10,214 bases of DNA from a virus. Lineage: Duplodnaviria; Heunggongvirae; Uroviricota; Caudoviricetes. Below the pieces are notes generated by a model. It did not search any database. It saw only the letters and a list, made by a program, of their open reading frames with translations, and was not told the DNA's origin. The position numbers and the translations under genes were made by a program. This document shows positions 1,570-10,214 of this stretch, piece by piece (positions within the stretch are counted from its first letter, which is position 1; each line of letters begins with the position of its first letter). The stretch is taken from IMG/VR virus record IMGVR_UViG_2526164688_000015, positions 1-10,214 of that record, one strand, 5' to 3'.

Positions 1570-2170
1570 TTCACTGTTACCGCCATCAGCCAGCAGTTTC
1601 ATGCGTTGTGCCGAAGCCGTCGGAACGCGCATTACAGACATTCCGGTAGACCTCAACACGCTGTGGTCGCCGGACACATGCCCGGTGCATCTGCTGCCTT
1701 ATCTCGCCTGGGCATTTTCCGTTGACCGCTGGGACCGCAACTGGCCGGAGGAAACAAAGCGCCAGGTGATTCGCGATGCGTGGCTGATACACCGACACAA
1801 GGGGACCATCAGCGCACTGCGAAGAGCCGTGGAGCCTCTCGGCTACCTGATTGAAGTAAAGGAGTGGTGGCAACTCAACGAGGAGCCGGGAACATTTCGC
1901 ATTGTTGTCGGAGTACTTGATCAGGGCATCACCGATGAAATGTATCAGGAACTTGAGCGCCTTATTGCGGATGCAAAACCAGTAAGTCGCCATCTGACGG
2001 GGCTGGCGATCAGCCTGAGTGTGAACGGAAAGATTTTCGTTAGTACGGGATGCTATCACGGCGATGCCCTGACGGTTTATCCCTACACCCCGGAGTCCAT
2101 TATTGTCGAAGGGGATTATTTCCCGGCCCCGGCCATTCATTTAATTGATAATCTGAGAGTAAACGCATGA
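1562..2170 (+). CDS. I: Tail protein I (baseplate)
   Basis: ATG 1562 overlaps the J stop (ATGAGTAA) and is preceded by GAAGGTGGG. The product MSNSLLPP...IRELWSPDTCP..LLPYLAWAFSVDRWD..WPE..KR.VIRDA...HKGTI.A.RR.VEPLGYLI.V.EWW resembles recalled P2 gpI. The ORF track's start at 1529 is an in-frame upstream ATG and less likely. Confidence 0.88.
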   Translation: MSNSLLPPSASSFMRCAEAVGTRITDIPVDLNTLWSPDTCPVHLLPYLAWAFSVDRWDRNWPEETKRQVIRDAWLIHRHKGTISALRRAVEPLGYLIEVKEWWQLNEEPGTFRIVVGVLDQGITDEMYQELERLIADAKPVSRHLTGLAISLSVNGKIFVSTGCYHGDALTVYPYTPESIIVEGDYFPAPAIHLIDNLRVNA

Positions 2171-3558
2171 CAGTGAAATACTACGCCATTCTGACTAATC
2201 AGGGCGCAGCACGGCTGGCTAACGCGACGATGCTCGGCAGTAAGCTGAATCTGACGCAAATGGCCGTTGGTGATGCGAATGGTGTCTTGCCGACACCAGA
2301 CCCGGCACAGACAAAACTGATTAATCAGAAACGCATTGCACCGCTGAATCTTCTGAGTGTTGACCCGAACAACCAGAGCCAGATTATTGCGGAGCAAATC
2401 ATCCCTGAAAACGAGGGAGGATTCTGGATCCGTGAGATTGGTCTTTATGATGATGAAGGTGTACTCATTGCGGTGGCAAACTGCCCGGAAACGTACAAAC
2501 CGCAGTTGCAGGAAGGCAGTGGACGCACCCAGACTATCCGCATGATTCTGGTTGTCACGAACACCGAAGCCATCACGTTGAAAATCGACCCATCTGTGGT
2601 TCTGGCAACCCGTAAATACGTGGATGATAAAGTCCTGGAATTAAAGCTGTATGTGGATGACCAGATGAGAAACCACATTGCCGCACAGGATCCCCATACC
2701 CAGTATGCACCGAAACATAATCCGACACTCACCGGAGAGCCAAAAGCGCCGACACCGCCCGCAGGAAGTAACACCACACGGATTGCGACCACTGCGTTTA
2801 TACAGGCCGCAATTACAGCGCTGATTGGCGGTGCACCTGCCACGCTGGACACGCTGAAAGAAATTGCCGCGGCCATTAACAATGACCCGAAATTCAGTAC
2901 CACCATTAACAATGCGCTGGCACTCAAAGCGCCTCTGTCGAGCCCGGCACTTACCGGAACGCCAACAGCACCTACAGCGGCACAGTCGGCCAACAATACA
3001 CAGATTGCCACCACGGCTTTTGTGAAATCAGCAATTGCGGCAATGGTGGGTTCTGCCCCTGCGGCATTGGATACACTGAATGAACTGGCGGCGGCACTGG
3101 GGAATGATCCGAACTTTGCCACGACAATGCTTAATGCGCTGGCAGGTAAACAACCGCTGGACAATACGCTGACTAATTTGAGTGGAAAGGATGTAGCTGG
3201 TCTTCTCGCATACCTTGGTTTGGGAGAAGCCAGATATGTCATTCAGCGAGGAGCTAATGCCAATGGTGCGTGGATACGCTGGTCAGATGGTGCAATAGAA
3301 GTCTTTGGAACGGGGGGTTCTAATGATAATGGACTGGCTAAAGTCGTTTATCCAATTGCGCTACCTAAGCTTTCACGTTTTATCAGCATAGCGGAAAGAA
3401 TAGGAACGGATTATGGGGGCACATCTAATAACGTTCACGTTTCAATGATCGTGGATGACCAGGTCACTAATACCGGTTTTTATGTCCGCTGCCAGATGTA
3501 CGACGGAACACCATCAACAAGTGCTTTTTCCTGGAGGGTTTATTGTGCGCCTGTTTAA
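2167..3558 (+). CDS. H: Tail fibre protein H (conserved N-terminal/shaft part fused to the currently expressed variable tip)
   Basis: 463-aa ORF with ATG 2167 overlapping the I stop (ATGA). The N-terminus (AVGDANGVLPTPDPAQT...GGFWIREIGLYDDEGVLIAVAN.PETYKP...GSGRTQT.RM) and the shaft repeats (NSPALTGTPTAPTA...NTQIATTAF...LDTLNELAAALGNDPNFATTMLNALAGKQP) match recalled P2 gpH/Mu S-type fibres. The last roughly 110 aa lie downstream of the crossover site at 3203-3228. Confidence 0.9.
   Translation: MTVKYYAILTNQGAARLANATMLGSKLNLTQMAVGDANGVLPTPDPAQTKLINQKRIAPLNLLSVDPNNQSQIIAEQIIPENEGGFWIREIGLYDDEGVLIAVANCPETYKPQLQEGSGRTQTIRMILVVTNTEAITLKIDPSVVLATRKYVDDKVLELKLYVDDQMRNHIAAQDPHTQYAPKHNPTLTGEPKAPTPPAGSNTTRIATTAFIQAAITALIGGAPATLDTLKEIAAAINNDPKFSTTINNALALKAPLSSPALTGTPTAPTAAQSANNTQIATTAFVKSAIAAMVGSAPAALDTLNELAAALGNDPNFATTMLNALAGKQPLDNTLTNLSGKDVAGLLAYLGLGEARYVIQRGANANGAWIRWSDGAIEVFGTGGSNDNGLAKVVYPIALPKLSRFISIAERIGTDYGGTSNNVHVSMIVDDQVTNTGFYVRCQMYDGTPSTSAFSWRVYCAPV
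2728..3159 (+). repeat. Two tandem 70-aa fibre-shaft repeats (about 2728-2937 and 2950-3159, period about 222 nt) inside H
   Basis: Repeat 1 LTGEPKAPTPPAGSNTTRIATTAFIQAAITALIGGAPATLDTLKEIAAAINNDPKFSTTINNALALKAPL aligns with repeat 2 LTGTPTAPTAAQSANNTQIATTAFVKSAIAAMVGSAPAALDTLNELAAALGNDPNFATTMLNALAGKQPL. The pattern is typical of phage tail-fibre repeat units. Confidence 0.7.
3203..3228. repeat. Left recombination (crossover) site for the DNA invertase, hix/gix/pix-like, inside the H coding sequence
   Basis: 26-bp imperfect palindrome TTCTCGCATACC-TT-GGTTTGGGAGAA with the AAACC/GGTTT core typical of Hin/Gin/Pin sites. The 14 bp at 3215-3228 are a perfect inverted repeat of 4814-4827. In the H frame the site encodes ..AYLGLGE... 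Confidence 0.7.
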
Positions 3559-3742
3559 TCCTGTTACTTTGACTGAAGTAATCCCCGGTCTTCATGACGT
3601 GACCGGGGCTGTTGAATTACCAGAAGATAACTGGTTTTTTACTGCATCTGAAATCCCTGAAGGAATGGAAATATCTGTTAACGAGAAGGGAGAACCCATT
3701 CTGATTGAGATTAAACCGTCTCAGGAGGAACTGGCCAGATGA
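3545..3742 (+). CDS. Small 65-aa protein downstream of the fibre tip; possible truncated or minimal tail-fibre assembly chaperone
   Basis: GTG 3545 with a strong GGAGG RBS at 3533-3537 (7-nt spacer), overlapping the H stop. The position is exactly where a tfa gene is expected. It is too short for a canonical Tfa of about 175-200 aa, and its 3' end overlaps the convergent antisense tfa by about 30 bp. Function is inferred from position only. Confidence 0.45.
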   Translation: MRLFNPVTLTEVIPGLHDVTGAVELPEDNWFFTASEIPEGMEISVNEKGEPILIEIKPSQEELAR

Positions 3743-4316
3743 CATCTGGCGCGGTGCTGGTATCTGTTGCCATCACCGCGTCAGTGTAATCCAGCACGGC
3801 GTTAAGTCGGGTGTTTTCTGCCTGCGTCAGCTTCCGCCCGGCCTGCAATTTCAGTTGAATCAGACTAATGGAAACCATTGCAGCATCAATCAGCGACTGC
3901 CGCTGTGTTTCTGCCATGTCTACTGCTGCTCTATGCTGTGCCTCGGTATCCGTCACCCATTTCTCACCATCCCATTTATCGTATGGCGTTAACGGGGCGA
4001 TAGTGGTTGTCTTTTCAGGGTAATCACCCGGAGCTGTGATTTCTTTTGATTCTCCTGTTTCGGTGCTATAGACGATTTCACCGCGATGGTCTGGCACATA
4101 TTCCCATGAGTTAAAATCTGCAGAACGGCAAATTGCATAACCAGCTTTATATGAGCCAGGAGCATCTAAACAGGAACATGCCGGGATACCGACACCCACA
4201 GCAAGATATTCGGTTGATGTGGAAATATATTCTCGTGTTTCACCATCATAATTATAAACGGTAATATCTCCCGCCTTTGTGGCGATGAGTTCCTTATTTA
4301 ATATAGCTTTATCCAT
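3711..4316 (-). CDS. Tail-fibre assembly protein (chaperone for the alternative, currently silent fibre tip)
   Basis: 201-aa ORF. ATG at 4316-4314 overlaps the stop of the upstream tip cassette (TGATG), with a GAGGG RBS. The size and the C-terminal region (...AETQRQSLIDAA...LQAGRKLTQAENTRLNAVLDYTDAV...STAPDVIWPVPP) are typical of Tfa/gpG/U-family chaperones. Confidence 0.8.
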   Translation of the reverse strand: MDKAILNKELIATKAGDITVYNYDGETREYISTSTEYLAVGVGIPACSCLDAPGSYKAGYAICRSADFNSWEYVPDHRGEIVYSTETGESKEITAPGDYPEKTTTIAPLTPYDKWDGEKWVTDTEAQHRAAVDMAETQRQSLIDAAMVSISLIQLKLQAGRKLTQAENTRLNAVLDYTDAVMATDTSTAPDVIWPVPPETV

Positions 4317-4867
4317 CAGGCAGCCCTCACGATATAATTAAAGGCAATGTTACGGGGTCGATTTTCGTTTGCAGTTGGAACAATTCTTGAAGCATCAAGG
4401 CCAATCACTTTTGGGTAAACACCGCCCTCGGACCTTTCTGTCACCATACTTCTGACTAAGGAGAAATAACTATTGTTCGTTGAGGGGTTCAAAGGCACCA
4501 CTGCCCCCTTAAACGAGCCTACTGATTCCCATATTGAATAATTTTCGGTGTTTACAGTCTTGAACTCACCATAGATATTACGTATGGCATCGCCCTGAGC
4601 GGATAATATTGTTCTCCCCGCATCCGCACTACGCCCATCATCCCAGCCACGAATAAATTCACCGCGTAAATCAGGCAATTTATTTGTCGGGTAAGCCTTT
4701 GCCAGTTCCGGGTATTCTTCAGCAGAAAAAGCCGCACCATTGCATTTCAGCCAGCCTGTCGGCGGAGTGGCGGAAGGCCACGGAACAGGCACACCGACAG
4801 GTAATGCAGAGCCTTCTCCCAAACCAACGTTTGTGAAAATGCAGAGATAACGGGTAACTGGCATCAT
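4316..4867 (-). CDS. Alternative tail-fibre C-terminal (receptor-binding tip) cassette, silent in this orientation
   Basis: 183-aa ORF on the minus strand. After the crossover site it encodes ..NVGLGEGSALPVGVPVPWPSATPPTGWLKCNGAAFSAEEYPELAKAYP.NKLPDLRGEFIRGWDDGR..DAGR, the widespread phage tail-fibre tip/collar motif. Inversion would fuse it in frame to the H shaft at the shared GLGE junction. Only the first 9-18 codons, including the ATG-ATG start, lie outside the invertible segment. Confidence 0.75.
   Translation of the reverse strand: MMPVTRYLCIFTNVGLGEGSALPVGVPVPWPSATPPTGWLKCNGAAFSAEEYPELAKAYPTNKLPDLRGEFIRGWDDGRSADAGRTILSAQGDAIRNIYGEFKTVNTENYSIWESVGSFKGAVVPLNPSTNNSYFSLVRSMVTERSEGGVYPKVIGLDASRIVPTANENRPRNIAFNYIVRAA
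4814..4839. repeat. Right recombination (crossover) site for the DNA invertase
   Basis: TTCTCCCAAACC-AA-CGTTTGTGAAAA. The first 14 bp are a perfect inverted repeat of 3215-3228, and the central dinucleotide (AA versus TT) is consistent with inverted orientation. The site lies 56 bp upstream of the invertase start, as in Mu gin, P1 cin and e14 pin. Confidence 0.7.
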
Positions 4868-4894
4868 CTCCGGTTTTTATTCAGGGGGATGCTC

Positions 4895-5485
4895 ATGCTT
4901 ATTGGTTATGTTCGCGTATCAACAAATGACCAGAACACGGAATTGCAGCGTAACGCGCTGGAGTGCGCAGGATGTGAACTGATTTTTGAAGATAAAATCA
5001 GCGGAACGAAATCAGCCAGACCGGGATTGAAAAAACTGCTCAGAACGCTATCAGAAGGAGATACGCTGGTTGTCTGGAAGCTGGACAGGCTGGGCAGGAG
5101 TATGAAACACCTGATCACGCTTATTGAGGAATTGCGGGAAAAAGGTGTTAATTTCCGTAGCCTGACGGACAGCATTGACACATCAACACCCATGGGGCGT
5201 TTCTTTTTTCACGTCATGGGAGCTTTAGCAGAAATGGAACGTGAATTAATTGTAGAGCGTACACTGGCCGGGCTGGCAGCAGCACGAGCACAGGGACGCA
5301 TTGGCGGACGTCGCCCGAAGTTGACAAAAGAACAACATGAGCAAATAGAAAGGCTGATTAAAAACGGCCATGACAGGAAACAACTGGCGATCATTTACGA
5401 CATCGGTATATCGACGATTTATCGTTATCACCCTGTAGGCGATATACAGGCTGAAGAAACAACCGGGCAGACTCAGGGAAAATAA
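4895..5485 (+). CDS. pin: Serine recombinase, DNA invertase of the Pin/Gin/Hin/Cin family
   Basis: Start at the second ATG (4895), which has an AGGGGG RBS at 4883-4888; the track's 4889 ATG has no spacer. The product MLIGYVRVSTNDQNTELQRNAL...LVVWKLDRLGRSMKHLI...FRSLTDSIDTSTPMGRFFFHVMGALAEMERELIVERT...GRIGGRRPKLT is almost diagnostic of this family, with the catalytic Ser in the YVRVSTNDQ motif and a C-terminal HTH. Confidence 0.95.
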   Translation: MLIGYVRVSTNDQNTELQRNALECAGCELIFEDKISGTKSARPGLKKLLRTLSEGDTLVVWKLDRLGRSMKHLITLIEELREKGVNFRSLTDSIDTSTPMGRFFFHVMGALAEMERELIVERTLAGLAAARAQGRIGGRRPKLTKEQHEQIERLIKNGHDRKQLAIIYDIGISTIYRYHPVGDIQAEETTGQTQGK

Positions 5486-5515
5486 AAAACCGCTAATCTG
5501 ACCATTAGCGGTTTT
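5486..5515. terminator. Bidirectional rho-independent terminator between the convergent invertase and tail-shaft operons
   Basis: Hairpin ACCGCTAAT-CTGACC-ATTAGCGGT (5489-5512) flanked by an A run on the 5' side and a T run on the 3' side. Sits in the 37-bp gap between the pin stop (5485) and the U stop (5523). Confidence 0.65.
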
Positions 5516-5522
5516 GCGTTAA

Positions 5523-6017
5523 TCAAAACAGCCCTTTAACGGAGCTGGCCGCGCTGTTAAGGGATGATGTGACCTTATCTTTGAAGCCGGACAGCATATC
5601 ACTGAACGATGAGGATTGCAGGCGCTCCCGCAAATCCTCATCACAGCGTTCAAGAGTCAGTGAAAATTCTATCTTTTTCGCCTTACCGTAGCGATCAAAC
5701 TCGGAACGGGTCGTATTCGTTTCAGTCAGCACATACATGCCGTAAATCTGCCCGACGCCATCAATCAAAGGCCAGGGTCGTCCTGTATACGCCTGCGTGG
5801 TCAGCAGCGACAGCGACACTTCGCCACCTGTAATTTCAGGATAAAGCACACCAGAAAGAACGATGCGATCATCACCTGCACCGATATACTGCCAGCTTGC
5901 TGAACGGTTAACGCGTTCATTTTTCACATGCCGCCAGCTTTTGTTTTGCTGTAACTGCTGATGCGGCAGCGTGCGCAGCTCAAAAACAAACATGCCGTAG
6001 ATCATCATCATGGCCAT
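5523..6017 (-). CDS. U: Tail protein U (P2 gpU family)
   Basis: 164-aa ORF directly downstream of the tape measure gene with a GAGGAG RBS. The motifs FELRTLP.Q.LQ....WRH...R.....Q..G.G.D.I.LSGVLYPE.TGG and GKA.KI.F.L.L resemble recalled P2 gpU. Confidence 0.85.
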   Translation of the reverse strand: MAMMMIYGMFVFELRTLPHQQLQQNKSWRHVKNERVNRSASWQYIGAGDDRIVLSGVLYPEITGGEVSLSLLTTQAYTGRPWPLIDGVGQIYGMYVLTETNTTRSEFDRYGKAKKIEFSLTLERCDEDLRERLQSSSFSDMLSGFKDKVTSSLNSAASSVKGLF

Positions 6018-6023
6018 GACTCC

Positions 6024-8867
6024 TCAATCTTTATCGTAAAAACTGCCACGCCCGGCACGGGCGCGCCGTTCCATTTCTGCCCTGACCATTTCACCGACCA
6101 GTTTCGCCAGTTCGCGGGGATTCTGCGTAACAACGTTATGCAGATGAACATGAATTTCACCACCAAATCCGGAGGCAACAGGCTCCCGGTTACGGGAAGT
6201 TACAGGAACTGATGCCACTGGAGATCGTATAGCCTCCGCCACCGGGCGGGAGCTGGCCGCAACAACAGGGACCAGCGCCGGAGGCAGCGGAGCCGGGACC
6301 ACGGGTGTGATATTAATTGCGGGGGCAGGCTTACTGACCTGCGCAATCTTCCGCTCCTGCCACTCCCCACGAACAGCAAGTGCTCGGGGCAGGTTTTTAA
6401 AGACAATATCGCCGGGGCCAATGCGTTTTTTCGTCTCCTCAACCAGCTTACCTGTGTTATCAGCAATTTTGCTGAGTCTGCGCAGCGTACCGGTATTGCT
6501 GTCTGTGAGCGGTTTATTGTCTTTGGGGTTATCACCTCCGGTGCCATTGCCATTTTCCACAGGCTTCGGCGGATTGATTTTCGCCAGGTCCCCCTGAAGC
6601 AAGGCAACCTTGTCCTGAAGAATGGCCGCACGCTGTGCGTCTTCGATTTTCTTGCGCGCCCTTTCCGCTTCATCCGGAAGCACACCAAGCTTTTCAAGTA
6701 TCCACGCCAGCGTATCCAGCAACATTTTTGCAGGTGTCAGAACAAGTTGTAACGCACCGCCAAGAACGTTACCGAATATCTCGCCAGCACTGGTACATTT
6801 ATCCAGAGTTTCCTTGCTGGACTCCATCGGTGACAGCAGCGATTTAAACCAGTTAAACACCTGGCTGATCCCACTCCCGATTGCGTCAAAAACAGGACCA
6901 AACCGTTCAAAGGTTTCGCGCAACGGGGTCAGCCTTTCCATAATCCCGCTGAACACCCCGGCAAAAAATGCCCTGATGGGATCCCAGTATTTCCAGATAA
7001 GAACGGCAGCTCCGGCAAGCGCAGCCACGATAAGACCAACCGGACTGAACAACGCCCCGATAGCGCCTCCCAGTAAAGAAACGGAACCCGTCACCATTCC
7101 CCATAGTGCTGGCAGAACCCTGACAGCATTCATTGATCCGGTCAGGAGGGAAAAACCAAGACGCAGTTTTGCCAGCGGGCCAGCAAGCACACCAATAGCC
7201 AGCGACAACGAGCCAACCGTTGCAGTCATTGCCAGCAGTGCACCGCCTGCAATCAGTAGCTGGCGCGTCAGTGCGGGATGGGCCTGCGCCAGCGCCGTCA
7301 CCTTTGATACCACACGCGTGAGCCACTGCGTGACAGAACGCAGCGGACCGTCAATCAGATCTGCAATGCGGATGCGCAACCCTTCCCATGCACTGCTGAG
7401 TGATTTCAGATCGCCGTCAAGGTTGTTGGCCATAACCTTTGCCGTGCGTTCAGCCTCACCGCGCGCGCCTTCAAGTTCTTTTCTCAGTTTGGGTAAGGAG
7501 CCGTCACCTGCCGCATCAACGAGGGCCATAAATGATGTGAAAGCCTCTTCTCCGGCAATGTCCTTAAAGAACGATACCCGGTCAACTTCCCCGTATTTGC
7601 GGGTAGCTTTATAAAGGTCAGCCAGCACATCCTCCATCGGGCGCATTTTGCCCCCGGCATCCGAGACAGACACGCCAAGCTCTTTCAGCGCCTCTGCTGC
7701 CGCCTTTGGCGGTGATGCCAGACGAGCCAGGCTGGCACGCATTGCCGTACCAGCATCACTCCCCCTGATCCCCATATTCGCTAGCACGCCCGCCATCGCT
7801 GCGGCCTGCTCCAGCGATATTCCCAGCTTACCCGCCACCGGACCTGCATATTTCATGGTTTCACCCAGTGCGCGAAGGTCAGTGTTGGTACGGGTAAACG
7901 CTGCGGTGAGTGTGTCGCCGACCCGGTCCATCTGGTCAGCAGAAAGACCGAACTGCGTCAGAATATTTGAGCCAATATCCGCCGTCTCACCGAGGTCCAT
8001 ACCGCCAGCCGTTGCCATGCTCAGTACGCCAGGGAGCGCAGCCTGAATGGCCTGCGGTGTGAAGCCAGCCATTGCAAGAAATGCCTGCCCACTGGCGGCA
8101 TCGCCTGCGGTGAACTGCGTTTCAGAGCCCAGTTTTAACGCCTGCTCACGCAGCGCCTTAAACTGCGGGCTGTTTTTGTCGATTCGCGTCAGTGCCTGAA
8201 CGCGGGACATCTCTTTCCCGAACCCGATCGCAGGCTGCAAAAAACGCCCGGCAGCATAGCCGCCCGCCGCTGCCGCACCAATTGCCAGCGCACCACCTGT
8301 TTTCAGTTTTCCCGCTGTTTCCTGCGCGCGCGAATACCGCTCACGCGCCCGCGTTACACGCGCAAGCGCCTGCCGTTCGCGTTCAAGCTGGTTGTTGTAC
8401 TGTTCGGTGCGTCTGATGGCCTGCTGGATGGTGTTATCGCTGCCTGTCAGGGAAATGCCGTGGCGTTTCAGCTCTCCGCCAAGCTCCCGCATTTTCTGAA
8501 TTTCCCGTGTGCGCGATTCATTCAGGCGTTCAAGCCGGGTGCTTAACTGCTGCATCAGCTTTTGTTGTTTTTCGCTGAGCACTGTACCCGTGCGTTGTAA
8601 CTGATTAAGGGCGTTAAGCTGGCGTCGTGCTTTCACGATACCCGCATCCGCTTTACTGACAGCGTCCCGGGCGCGCTCAAATGAACGCGCCTGACGCTCG
8701 AGATTTTTGATCGCCCCCTGCGTTCGCTGGATGGAGTCACCAAACTGCCCCATCAGGCGGCGGGCGTTTTCGGCAGGCCGGGTCAGCCTGTCAACGGCGC
8801 TGAAAGCGCCCCGGATGTCAAGAGTCTTCATTATCTGCATTCCCGCTGCGAAGTGCCGCCCGCTCAC
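6024..8867 (-). CDS. T: Tail tape measure protein T
   Basis: 947-aa ORF immediately downstream of E/E'. It has a coiled-coil-like N-terminal region, a long central hydrophobic Ala/Gly/Leu-rich region and a Pro-rich C-terminal segment. The start is uncertain: GTG 8867, or ATG 8840 or 8831. It overlaps the end of the E' frame, as in P2. Confidence 0.9.
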   Translation of the reverse strand: MSGRHFAAGMQIMKTLDIRGAFSAVDRLTRPAENARRLMGQFGDSIQRTQGAIKNLERQARSFERARDAVSKADAGIVKARRQLNALNQLQRTGTVLSEKQQKLMQQLSTRLERLNESRTREIQKMRELGGELKRHGISLTGSDNTIQQAIRRTEQYNNQLERERQALARVTRARERYSRAQETAGKLKTGGALAIGAAAAGGYAAGRFLQPAIGFGKEMSRVQALTRIDKNSPQFKALREQALKLGSETQFTAGDAASGQAFLAMAGFTPQAIQAALPGVLSMATAGGMDLGETADIGSNILTQFGLSADQMDRVGDTLTAAFTRTNTDLRALGETMKYAGPVAGKLGISLEQAAAMAGVLANMGIRGSDAGTAMRASLARLASPPKAAAEALKELGVSVSDAGGKMRPMEDVLADLYKATRKYGEVDRVSFFKDIAGEEAFTSFMALVDAAGDGSLPKLRKELEGARGEAERTAKVMANNLDGDLKSLSSAWEGLRIRIADLIDGPLRSVTQWLTRVVSKVTALAQAHPALTRQLLIAGGALLAMTATVGSLSLAIGVLAGPLAKLRLGFSLLTGSMNAVRVLPALWGMVTGSVSLLGGAIGALFSPVGLIVAALAGAAVLIWKYWDPIRAFFAGVFSGIMERLTPLRETFERFGPVFDAIGSGISQVFNWFKSLLSPMESSKETLDKCTSAGEIFGNVLGGALQLVLTPAKMLLDTLAWILEKLGVLPDEAERARKKIEDAQRAAILQDKVALLQGDLAKINPPKPVENGNGTGGDNPKDNKPLTDSNTGTLRRLSKIADNTGKLVEETKKRIGPGDIVFKNLPRALAVRGEWQERKIAQVSKPAPAINITPVVPAPLPPALVPVVAASSRPVAEAIRSPVASVPVTSRNREPVASGFGGEIHVHLHNVVTQNPRELAKLVGEMVRAEMERRARAGRGSFYDKD

Positions 8868-9356
8868 GCCAGCTAACCACTTCGCCGGGCGTCATCATGA
8901 AGATTTCGGCGGGCGACCAGTTAAAAATGGCGGCAATATCCGCCACCAGATCTTCGATGTGCTCAAAGCACACCAGGGTGATTACGCTGCCGTCTCCTGC
9001 ACGCTCTTCGCGCCAGAGTCTGGCTCGCTCATAAAATTTACAGCCACAGCGCACAACTGAATAAAATCGCGTGACGACATTTTTTTAATCATCACTTCAT
9101 CCAGTCGTGGCGAAGTCACGCGAGGCAACAGCGTGAACATGGTATCCGCTTTCAGATTCAGCACATCAGACAGCGACAGACCACGCAGGGATCCCGCCTG
9201 CTCAATAGCCCCGGTGATTTCCACATATGTGATTTTTTCGGCACCACGCTCAATTGGCCGGGAAAGTTTTACACCACGTTCGACAGCCATATCCTCACCT
9301 GCCGTCACATCATCCGCTACGGTGTTATTCCGGGTTTCAGTATCGATGTCTTTCAT
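8818..9356 (-). CDS. Tail assembly chaperone E+E' (predicted programmed -1 frameshift product)
   Basis: The ORF at 8818-9054 is in the -1 frame relative to E by coordinate arithmetic. That frame opens just after a TAA at 9087-9085 and runs to a stop at 8818, overlapping the T start. An A7 tract at 9080-9086 lies in the overlap. The architecture matches the P2 E/E' and lambda G/GT paradigm. Confidence 0.6.
8982..9356 (-). CDS. E: Tail assembly chaperone E (zero-frame product)
   Basis: 124-aa ORF with ATG 9356 and an AAGGAGA RBS. It lies between the tube and tape measure genes, which is the conserved position of the frameshifting chaperone pair. Confidence 0.8.
   Translation of the reverse strand: MKDIDTETRNNTVADDVTAGEDMAVERGVKLSRPIERGAEKITYVEITGAIEQAGSLRGLSLSDVLNLKADTMFTLLPRVTSPRLDEVMIKKMSSRDFIQLCAVAVNFMSEPDSGAKSVQETAA
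9080..9086 (-). other. Candidate slippery site (A7 on the mRNA) for the E to E' -1 frameshift
   Basis: The E frame reads ATT-AAA-AAA-ATG (I-K-K-M). The homopolymeric A7 run sits exactly where the -1 frame becomes open. Confidence 0.5.
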
Positions 9357-9379
9357 CAGTTGTCTCCTTTTCAGTCAGA

Positions 9380-9398
9380 GGCGACGCACTGCGCCGCC
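9380..9398 (-). other. GC-rich stem-loop in the FII-E intergenic region (possible attenuator or mRNA stability element)
   Basis: The mRNA sequence GGCGGCGCA-GU-GCGUCGCC can form an 8-bp stem including one G-U pair. There is no downstream U tract, so it is not a canonical terminator. It lies in the 55-nt gap between the tube gene stop and the E RBS. Confidence 0.35.
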
Positions 9399-9411
9399 TG
9401 CATATTACTTA

Positions 9412-9924
9412 TCAGCCAAGCCCAAGCGCGGAGCGAATGCGGTCAGGCACAATGTCCTTGCCGTCCTTCCGGTAGATGTGGTTCAACAGGTCGATTTCCC
9501 ACAGCGGGCGATCGTTAACACTCAGCTTGTAGTAGGTGTTTTTGACAGCGTATGTGTGTGATGTGGCTTCGCCCTGTTTGGCCTCCCCCATATCAATTTC
9601 CGTCACACGCCCGCGCATCTCGATTTCATACAGATCGCTTTCTGCATCGGTGTAATATTCACCCGCAAAACGCAGCAGCGTGCCGTCAATCGTGCCGCCA
9701 TACTTAAGGAACAGTGCACGAACAGCTCCACCCATGACAAAGCTCGCATCAAGCGCGGAGTCGTCCAGACCGAGATCAATACTTACCGCCCCCATCATGC
9801 CACCACCACGATAACTGTCGGTTTTGCGCGTCAGTTTGGGCGGCGTGACGGATGTCACTTTACCCACTTCGTTTTCACCATCCACAAACAACGTAAAAAA
9901 GCGAAGATGTTTTGGTACAGCCAT
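9412..9924 (-). CDS. FII: Major tail tube protein FII
   Basis: 170-aa ORF with ATG at 9924-9922 overlapping the sheath stop (TGATG) and a GGGAGG RBS. The size and position immediately after the sheath gene fit P2 FII-family tube proteins. Confidence 0.88.
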   Translation of the reverse strand: MAVPKHLRFFTLFVDGENEVGKVTSVTPPKLTRKTDSYRGGGMMGAVSIDLGLDDSALDASFVMGGAVRALFLKYGGTIDGTLLRFAGEYYTDAESDLYEIEMRGRVTEIDMGEAKQGEATSHTYAVKNTYYKLSVNDRPLWEIDLLNHIYRKDGKDIVPDRIRSALGLG

Positions 9925-10214
9925 CAGGCACCTCCCAGCACCGCAAATGCGGGACCAAAGAATTCATCAGTAAACGTCTGGTAAAGCTCCATGTCTTCCA
10001 GCGGGGGAACGGGCGTATATTTGTAGCGAATACGCACACGCCCCTGACGTAAATCCGTGGTGCCGTTATCCACCACGTCATACCAGCACTCCGCGCCAAT
10101 CAGTTTCCCGGCAGTAACCAGTGAATCCAGTTTTGCCCTGATGGCACTGATAACATCCTTCACGTTCGCAGGCGTCAGTGGACTGTCGATGGTTTCAAAC
10201 TGCGCTTCCGCAAT
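9924..10214 (-). CDS. FI: Tail sheath protein FI, C-terminal part (5' end lies outside the window)
   Basis: The reading frame is open from the window edge (10214) down to TGA at 9926-9924. The C-terminus ..WYDVVDNGTTDLRQGRVRIRYKYTPVPPLEDMELYQTFTDEFF.. and its position upstream of the tube gene fit contractile sheath proteins. Confidence 0.85.
   Translation of the reverse strand: MAEAQFETIDSPLTPANVKDVISAIRAKLDSLVTAGKLIGAECWYDVVDNGTTDLRQGRVRIRYKYTPVPPLEDMELYQTFTDEFFGPAFAVLGGA

Follow-up and report, generated by a model that had tools for sequence, protein, structure and literature searches.

In phage Mu, the invertase Gin is encoded just outside the invertible G segment, which holds two cassettes, Sv-U and U'-Sv', that serve as alternatives behind the constant fibre part Sc, and the C segment of phage P1 with its invertase Cin follows the same switch logic. 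In the P segment of e14, a cryptic prophage of E. coli K-12 with the layout stfP-tfaP / tfaE-stfE / pinE, inversion was detected with sequencing and PCR (PMC4272514). P2-like prophages, such as those of EPEC E2348/69 and Fels-2, likewise have an invertible segment and an invertase downstream of a P2-type H gene; for the EPEC prophages, two-state as well as four-state inversions were demonstrated by sequencing and PCR (PMC4272514), and the Fels-2 invertase Fin is cited in the same work (Kutsukake 2006). The same kind of module is carried by phages pro483, S164 and P88.

The locus described here lies in a window of 10,214 nucleotides, by which we mean the whole stretch of DNA that was analysed, and we consider it very likely that the region is a Pin-type invertible tail-fibre segment with two alternative tips in a P88-like (Xuanwuvirus) prophage. 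The window ORFs and their Pfam matches place the module in a P2-family baseplate-fibre operon, the setting that a sequence-only reading of this DNA had proposed and that can now be refined. The pin-gpU-T stretch has 92.7-94.4% nucleotide identity to P88, P884B11, 520873, 503458, 500465-2 and Shae_phiSM, with 100% query coverage in each case, and, judged by this similarity, the host phage is P88-like (Xuanwuvirus, P2 family, Peduoviridae), a prophage of E. coli. The block from sheath through tube, E and tape measure to gpU starts right after the invertase and lies on the strand opposite to V-W-J-I-H, an arrangement in which it differs from P2. In pro483, a Peduovirus, the tail block is on the plus strand, and it was from this phage that the idea arose of a second, larger Pin inversion comprising the minus-strand tail block (gpU to sheath, 5523-10214). 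We rejected this idea because the arrangement is fixed in P88 and in all Xuanwuvirus records; at another locus (L001), gpD comes with an upstream region and a start of its own, which also argues against a larger inversion.

The segment is bounded by two inverted 26-bp sites of the hix/gix/pix type, of which one lies within H and the other next to the invertase gene, as the sequence-only reading had claimed and as both a repeat finder and the site comparison confirm. Each site consists of two 12-bp half-sites that form an imperfect dyad, with a 2-bp core in the middle. The left crossover site (3203..3228, plus strand) reads TTCTCGCATACC TT GGTTTGGGAGAA, with the central dinucleotide at 3215-3216 and agreement between the half-sites at 10 of 12 positions, and the right crossover site (4814..4839, plus strand) reads TTCTCCCAAACC AA CGTTTGTGAAAA, with the central dinucleotide at 4826-4827 and agreement at 9 of 12; after aligning the inverted sites, the two core dinucleotides are identical. 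The repeat finder returned arms of 27 nt at 3203-3229 and 4813-4839 that are 85% complementary, and the 1583 nt between them match the earlier estimate of about 1.6 kb. Compared as 26-mers in inverted orientation, the sites are identical at 22 of 26 positions. They do share a perfect core, as previously noted, but its length is 15 bp (TTGGTTTGGGAGAAG / CTTCTCCCAAACCAA) and not 14. The 14-mer core occurs in exactly two copies in the window, one on each strand, and no match to it was found in any of 200 dinucleotide-preserving shuffles of the window. By chance, the window also contains further inverted pairs that are about as long and as complementary. Since 27 nt at 85% is by itself not above background, it is the perfect core and the dyad structure that set this pair of sites apart. 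A degenerate site pattern matched these two sites only, with no third site in the window, and two sites imply two states; a third site as in a shufflon-like multi-state switch, known from EPEC, was looked for in this way and not found. When species-representative genomes were scanned with the right site, only three matches were obtained, in Shigella flexneri and E. coli.

Both sites are translated in fibre frames in the way that had been read from the DNA: the left site encodes LGLGE in the H frame (codons 350-354, with the central TT within codon 350), and in the antisense cassette frame, the minus-strand ORF 4316-4867, the right site is translated as ...NVGLGEGS.... That both arms lie in fibre frames and encode the same peptide would also be expected if the repeat were a mere conserved GLGE coding motif of homologous fibre fragments and the inversions arose through RecA recombination instead of through Pin. 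We regard this as extremely improbable, as RecA-dependent exchange would have to start from an identity of just 15 bp, a very short stretch for this pathway, and as both sites are in themselves built as dyads of 12-bp half-sites, the outer one of the right site fitting the half-site pattern even though it is not part of the fibre tip. Moreover, in an alignment to known serine-invertase sites that had been set beforehand as a test, the left site was identical to the e14 site inside stfP at 24 of 26 positions and the right site to the e14 site beside pinE at 25 of 26, i.e. both are nearly identical to characterised sites, and their architecture is the same as that of Mu gixL and gixR. Unrelated cassette pairs beside the same Pin also keep this site architecture and are found in both orientations.

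In the Pin-dependent switch that we favour, the alternative products can be read directly from the window. The tail-fibre gene H (2167..3558, plus strand), present in state A, encodes 463 aa, of which residues 1-150 match PF12571 Phage_tail_fib (E 9e-63). Codons 1-350 form the constant part outside the invertible segment, and the variable C-terminal 109 aa, tip A (3229..3558, plus strand), are encoded inside it; tip A matches phrog_2557 (E 1e-15) and, weakly, PF21882 Gp53-like_C (E 4e-4, 21.2 bits, below the cut-off of 24.9). The silent alternative, the 165-aa C-terminal tip B (4316..4813, minus strand), matches PF07484 Collar (E 1e-15) and the tail collar fibre family phrog_523 (E 1e-73), and its open frame crosses the segment border and reaches up to an ATG at 4865-4867. 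Inversion of the segment in silico joined the 350 constant H codons in frame to tip B, giving a 519-aa protein, H', followed directly by the Tfa gene in an overlapping TGATG. The proposal that inversion swaps the C-terminal tip of H in frame is therefore upheld: with codon 350 as the junction, the fibre has 463 aa in state A and becomes 519 aa long in state B. The exact 463-aa state-A protein is present on 24 public contigs, natural 519-aa proteins identical to the predicted H' are on record on 21, and the predicted 126-aa 'off' ORF of state B has an exact match on 16; the exact H' and the exact 126-aa 'off' ORF have accession numbers three apart. Homologues of 519 aa with 84-97% identity occur in E. 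coli, Salmonella, E. albertii and Shigella.

The gene for the 196-aa serine DNA invertase, pin (4895..5485, plus strand), has its homology-supported start at the ATG at 4895, two codons downstream of the ATG at 4889 given by the ORF finder, and this start is 56 bp beyond the end of the right site at 4839, exactly as stated in the sequence-only reading. Pin has the layout of a small serine recombinase, an N-terminal catalytic domain with its serine and a C-terminal helix-turn-helix; both domains are intact (PF00239 Resolvase, E 5e-52; PF02796 HTH_7, E 3e-12), and the catalytic Ser9 is kept in MLIGYVRVSTNDQ. Its identity to PinE is 83%, and over its full length it aligns with the Gin structures 4m6f and 3uj3 (E about 1e-91). 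The anatomy of the module, the in-frame fusion and an intact invertase are all shown by the sequence analysis. Invertases that depend on Fis and an enhancer have uniquely conserved residues, in Hin the basic helix-B residues K47, K/R48 and K/R51 and the Fis-contact residues Q151, R154 and L155 (PMC3798978). Pin carries K46, K47, R50, Q150, R153 and L154, the Hin numbering being one higher, and the Mu, P1 and e14 paradigm suggests that Fis and an enhancer inside pin would be needed here as well.

Such an enhancer is about 65 bp long, with a Fis site at each end, and lies about 100 bp from one of the crossover sites, inside the 5' end of the invertase gene. By analogy, we propose a candidate Fis-dependent enhancer in the 5' end of pin (4916..4979, plus strand), where two Fis-like 15-mers with G/C ends, GTATCAACAAATGAC and GCGCAGGATGTGAAC, are found at 4916-4930 and 4965-4979. 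Measured between centres, they lie about 97 and about 146 bp from the right site and 49 bp from each other, with the same spacing and positions as in Mu gin; as the region is coding, conservation there is confounded by coding constraint and is no independent evidence. The Fis sites of Hin are spaced by 48 bp, and a Fis-site scan gave no clean pair at this spacing. Downstream, a hairpin terminator (5486..5515) with a 12-pair stem and a subsequent T run separates the convergent pin and gpU genes.

The sequence-only reading had also called for a search for both orientations, and in public assemblies the same element indeed differs only by an exact inversion. One locus (L020), in state A, differs from the window at 1 nt in 7,791. 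At another (L021), Pin is identical, the flanks show 0 mismatches in 1935 and 1 in 4273 positions relative to L020, and between them the 1,583 bp of the L020 interior are present in exactly reverse-complemented form. The same element thus occurs naturally in both orientations. Likewise, a related element in E. coli DG341-1 and DG343-1 has a 6,019-bp locus that differs between the two only by an exact 1,583-bp inversion with the same cores; the two chromosome records are equal in length. Judged from public assemblies, the switch is evidently working. One could still imagine a fossil switch in which the sites and pin look intact and inversion has ceased in this strain, with pin silent or the prophage defective, leaving the fibre frozen in state A. 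Indeed, the window shows one orientation only, a consensus scan of 4840-4894 found no sigma-70-like promoter, and relatives decay, as in CP074756, in which IS26 has inserted in the tip B cassette. However, the ORFs of the module are all intact in the window, identical Pin and identical sites are found with both orientations in other assemblies, and the exact state-A and state-B products are present on similar numbers of contigs (24 versus 21), and we consider a frozen element very unlikely.

Returning to the working two-state switch, each tip has its own partner gene. That of tip B is Tfa (3711..4316, minus strand), a tail-fibre assembly protein of 201 aa that belongs to the silent cassette and is homologous to TfaE (PF02413 Caudo_TAP, E 7e-30; phrog_105, E 1e-95). 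The partner of tip A is ORF65 (3545..3742, plus strand; 65 aa), which starts before the end of H, at a GTG lying 6 nt downstream of GGAGGG, and matches phrog_188 and positions 1-66 of the 145 of phrog_5400. The idea that inversion would swap the cognate chaperone together with the tip therefore stands for tip B and its Caudo_TAP Tfa and needs refining for tip A, the partner of which is a 65-aa protein and not a normal Tfa. A search for a Pfam family gave no match for ORF65, NCBIfam gave no informative names, and none of the libraries searched offers a functional name for its family. The protein is 35% identical to residues 22-64 of a 139-aa Caudo_TAP protein and resembles the N-terminal half only of Caudo_TAP assembly proteins, without the C-terminal half.

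Given a partner of half size, it could be argued that state A leads to a non-functional or fibre-less virion and that the segment is an ON/OFF switch in which only state B is infectious; besides the missing Pfam family and the coverage of only the N-terminal half of Caudo_TAP, the last 10 codons of ORF65 run across the end of the convergent Tfa gene on the opposite strand, as antisense read-through. We nevertheless find this unlikely, since the ORF65 family is conserved, with 141 homologues in at least eight enterobacterial genera (lengths of 47-90 aa among the 120 of 141 listed), and since dN/dS is 0.08 relative to the homologue in phage S164, which is 68% identical, equally short, has the same end and lies beside a different convergent neighbour gene. 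A dN/dS estimate relative to DG341-1 is uninformative, as the segment is 99.7-100% identical there. In addition, tip A matches known fibre-tip families, and the pair of tip A and ORF65 recurs on several phage backbones. That ORF65 is a recent deletion remnant of a Tfa of about 140 aa was likewise rejected, based on the uniformly short listed homologues, the end shared with S164 and the dN/dS of 0.08. By these comparisons, ORF65 is conserved and under purifying selection, from which we infer that state A would yield a fully functional fibre. More tentatively, and with somewhat less than even confidence, we suggest that ORF65 and its relatives of about 60 aa may represent an undescribed class of minimal fibre partners, corresponding to the N-terminal half only of Caudo_TAP and dedicated to divergent Gp53-like tips. 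If this were true, the switch would toggle between modes of assembly, full chaperone versus mini-partner, in addition to receptors.

We propose that Pin, encoded just outside the segment and probably the enzyme responsible if the Mu, P1 and e14 paradigm applies, would bind both 26-bp sites, cut at the central TT/AA (3215-3216 and 4826-4827) and invert the intervening 1.6 kb. In state A, the one present in the window, the 350 H codons would lead into tip A, with its divergent Gp53-like C-terminal domain, and then ORF65, and in state B they would continue in frame into the Collar domain of tip B, directly followed by the 201-aa Tfa. A lysogen population would then release virions with either of two receptor-binding tips, and the same paradigm suggests that these may confer different host ranges.

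The module is a clean and fully intact example of a classic bet-hedging device. On a practical level, gene callers split the silent cassette into a 'phage tail protein' and a 'hypothetical protein', and assemblies may differ only in the orientation of the segment, so that recognising the switch will help to avoid miscalled strain differences, truncated fibres and misassemblies.

Neither the type of switch nor the element itself is new, and the same is true of the mechanism; the likeness to the Mu G, P1 C and e14 P segments that had been suggested earlier is supported by our comparison of gene layout, sites and invertase with e14 and Mu. P88 itself carries Mu-like gix sites and a cassette pair different from that of the window; inversion is not discussed in the P88 paper, and a C. 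rodentium paper on a P88-related phage has only a predicted DNA invertase. The sites of Mu likewise have 26 bp, with 12-bp half-sites and a 2-bp core, and Pin matches the Gin structures, whereas the central dinucleotide is TC/GA in Mu and TT/AA here, the segment is about 3 kb long in Mu and 1.6 kb here, and both the fibre families and the phage backbone differ. The P segment of e14 has the same layout as this locus, a constant fibre followed by a tip and its partner, a convergent Tfa and tip, and the invertase outside; sites (25/26 and 24/26) and invertase (83%) are closely alike, and Tfa and tip B are of the TfaE/StfE type, NCBI naming a related gene tfaE. The left cassette of e14, in contrast, encodes the 137-aa TfaP where this locus has a Gp53-like tip and the 65-aa ORF65, and e14 itself is the defective remnant of a lambdoid phage, while the switch described here belongs to the tail operon of a P2-family myovirus with genes intact across the window.

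The same element occurs in both states in public genomes. When complete E. coli genomes were searched with window-orientation (state A) and in-silico inverted (state B) queries, 20 and 36 records, respectively, were found at a coverage of at least 80%. The equal-length chromosome records of DG341-1 and DG343-1 carry a segment 99.7-100% identical to the window's, and their 6,019-bp locus differs only by an exact 1,583-bp inversion between the cores of the crossover sites. A second opposite pair was recovered using the exact Pin protein as query handle: CP056936.1, in state A, differs from the window by 1 nt in 7,791, and JAHCFI010000071.1 shows 0/1935 and 1/4273 flank mismatches to it, its 1,583-bp interior being the exact reverse complement. 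Beside the same Pin, other cassette pairs are also found in both orientations (L024/L027 versus L028, and L023 versus L025, all comparison loci from public assemblies). In a public protein collection, the exact H fibre of state A is present on 24 contigs, the exact 519-aa fibre predicted for state B (H') on 21 and the exact 126-aa state-B 'off' ORF on 16, the accession numbers of the last two lying three apart. These observations confirm that the invertible segment is real, and they support its interpretation as a fibre switch, as the sequence-only reading had proposed for 3203-4839.

Many homologues of ORF65, the 65-aa partner gene of tip A, lie on contigs of only ~1.55-1.69 kb, one of which, at 1,583 bp, has exactly the length of the invertible segment. 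As short-read assemblies break at such short repeats, this suggests that both orientations were present in the cultures behind these contigs. Among complete E. coli genomes, the closest one, CP074756.1, has an IS26-family transposase in the tip B cassette (10150-11260, equivalent to window ~4316-4890), an insertion that would disable one switch state.

The repeat finder placed both sites where they had been claimed, as 27-nt inverted arms at 3203-3229 and 4813-4839 that are 85% complementary and 1,583 nt apart. The window also holds chance inverted pairs of comparable length and percentage, so this pair stands out by its perfect core and internal structure. The two 26-mers agree at 22 of 26 positions and share a perfect 15-bp core, TTGGTTTGGGAGAAG; each strand of the window carries a single copy of the 14-mer core, which was matched in none of 200 dinucleotide-preserving shuffles. 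Both sites are internal dyads, the left around TT (TTCTCGCATACC-TT-GGTTTGGGAGAA) and the right around AA (TTCTCCCAAACC-AA-CGTTTGTGAAAA). In window scans, the 12-bp half-site TTCTCCCAAACC was present at these sites only, even with two mismatches permitted. A degenerate 26-bp pattern matched these two alone, making this a two-state switch.

Upstream, gpW (319-669), gpJ (673-1569) and gpI (1529-2170) precede H (2167-3558, 463 aa, PF12571 at its N-terminus), all on the plus strand. The left site lies inside H, whose codons 350-354 read LGLGE, and the final 109 aa of H, tip A (phrog_2557, with a weak, sub-threshold Gp53-like_C match), fall within the segment, together with ORF65 (3545-3742, GTG start) and, on the minus strand, a 201-aa Caudo_TAP assembly protein, Tfa (3711-4316), and tip B (4316-4813), a fibre end with a Collar domain. 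Inverting the segment in silico (reverse complement of 3216-4826) joins H codon 350 in frame to tip B (...LGLGEGSALPVG...) and gives the 519-aa H', its stop overlapping the ATG of Tfa (TGATG), as expected from the in-frame tip swap that had been proposed.

The frame of tip B is open to an ATG at 4867; because it runs past the right site, gene callers report a free-standing 'tail protein' ORF. In the window, phage S164 and e14, the silent tip frame always extends beyond the right site and reaches a start codon shortly ahead of pin, the extension being MPVTRYLCIFTNV (4840-4867, minus strand), MMPVTRYLCIFINV and MMPFACYFFIFINV, respectively; the loci compared with the window were L004 (~4633-4656) and L009 (~2560-2600).

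ORF65 had been taken for a cognate chaperone. It is a real gene, as indicated by 141 homologues and a dN/dS of 0.08 against the equally short S164 homologue, which adjoins a different convergent gene, but it is not a normal Tfa: the Pfam search found no family for it, and it corresponds to an N-terminal half only, matching positions 1-66 of 145 in phrog_5400 and aligning to a 139-aa protein at residues 22-64, inside that protein's Caudo_TAP domain (residues 11-134). The 120 homologues listed are 47-90 aa long and come from Escherichia, Enterobacter, Salmonella, Kosakonia, Cronobacter, Hafnia, Yersinia and Citrobacter. The final ten ORF65 codons are antisense to the last part of the convergent Tfa gene, with a 32-nt 3'-end overlap (3711-3742); in e14 and in comparison locus L001, the two convergent tfa genes overlap in a similar way, by 29 nt.

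Homology backs the proposed start of pin at ATG 4895, outside the segment and 56 bp past the right site. The protein has Resolvase and HTH_7 domains (Pfam search), aligns end to end with Gin crystal structures (E about 1e-91) and retains Ser9. Residues uniquely conserved in Fis/enhancer-dependent invertases (Hin K47, K/R48, K/R51, Q151, R154 and L155; McLean et al., PMC3798978) are all present, as K46, K47, R50, Q150, R153 and L154. Two Fis-like 15-mers at the Mu-gin-homologous position are a tentative enhancer candidate, but they are spaced 49 bp apart and the region is coding.

After pin, a hairpin terminator (5486-5515) is directly followed by gpU, the tape-measure gene, gpE, tube and sheath on the minus strand (5523-10214). 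In the P2-type phage pro483 this tail block is on the same strand as V-W-J-I-H, whereas here it is on the opposite one. A second inversion was considered and rejected, since the order is fixed in P88 and other Xuanwuvirus phages, where the opposite strand is normal; given this order and 92.7-94.4% identity over pin-gpU-T, the window is a P88-like prophage. From window 2960, where the comparison began, to 4832, the Peduovirus-type prophage of DG341-1 is 99-100% identical over the segment and over at least ~250 bp of H on the left side, a lower bound; on the right, the outer half of the right site is precisely where identity falls. Outside this stretch, identity is just 79% for the constant part of H and ~70% for the invertase. 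The near-identical segment beside more divergent sequence shows that the cassette moves between phage backbones. Among loci with an identical 196-aa Pin (L019-L028), the same backbone is combined with four or more distinct cassette pairs; at L026, a SopE-type gene (PF05364/PF07487, 240 aa) occupies the silent cassette's usual place, an arrangement reminiscent of SopE-phi.

The mechanism is the classic Gin/Cin/Pin fibre switch, with switching in the source culture, Pin/Fis dependence and a host-range difference as predictions. Inversions of this type have been shown by sequencing and PCR in e14 and EPEC P2-like prophages (PMC4272514). The gene layout of e14 is the same as that of the window's segment, Pin is 83% identical to PinE, and the sites align with known invertase sites, as the sequence-only reading implied: in E. 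coli K-12, the e14 site adjoining pinE (TTCTCCCAAACCAACGTTTATGAAAA) matches the right site at 25/26 positions and the one within stfP ((T)TCTCGAAAACCTTGGTTTGGGAGAA) matches the left at 24/26. The 12-2-12 architecture is shared by Mu gixL and gixR, whose core dinucleotide is different.
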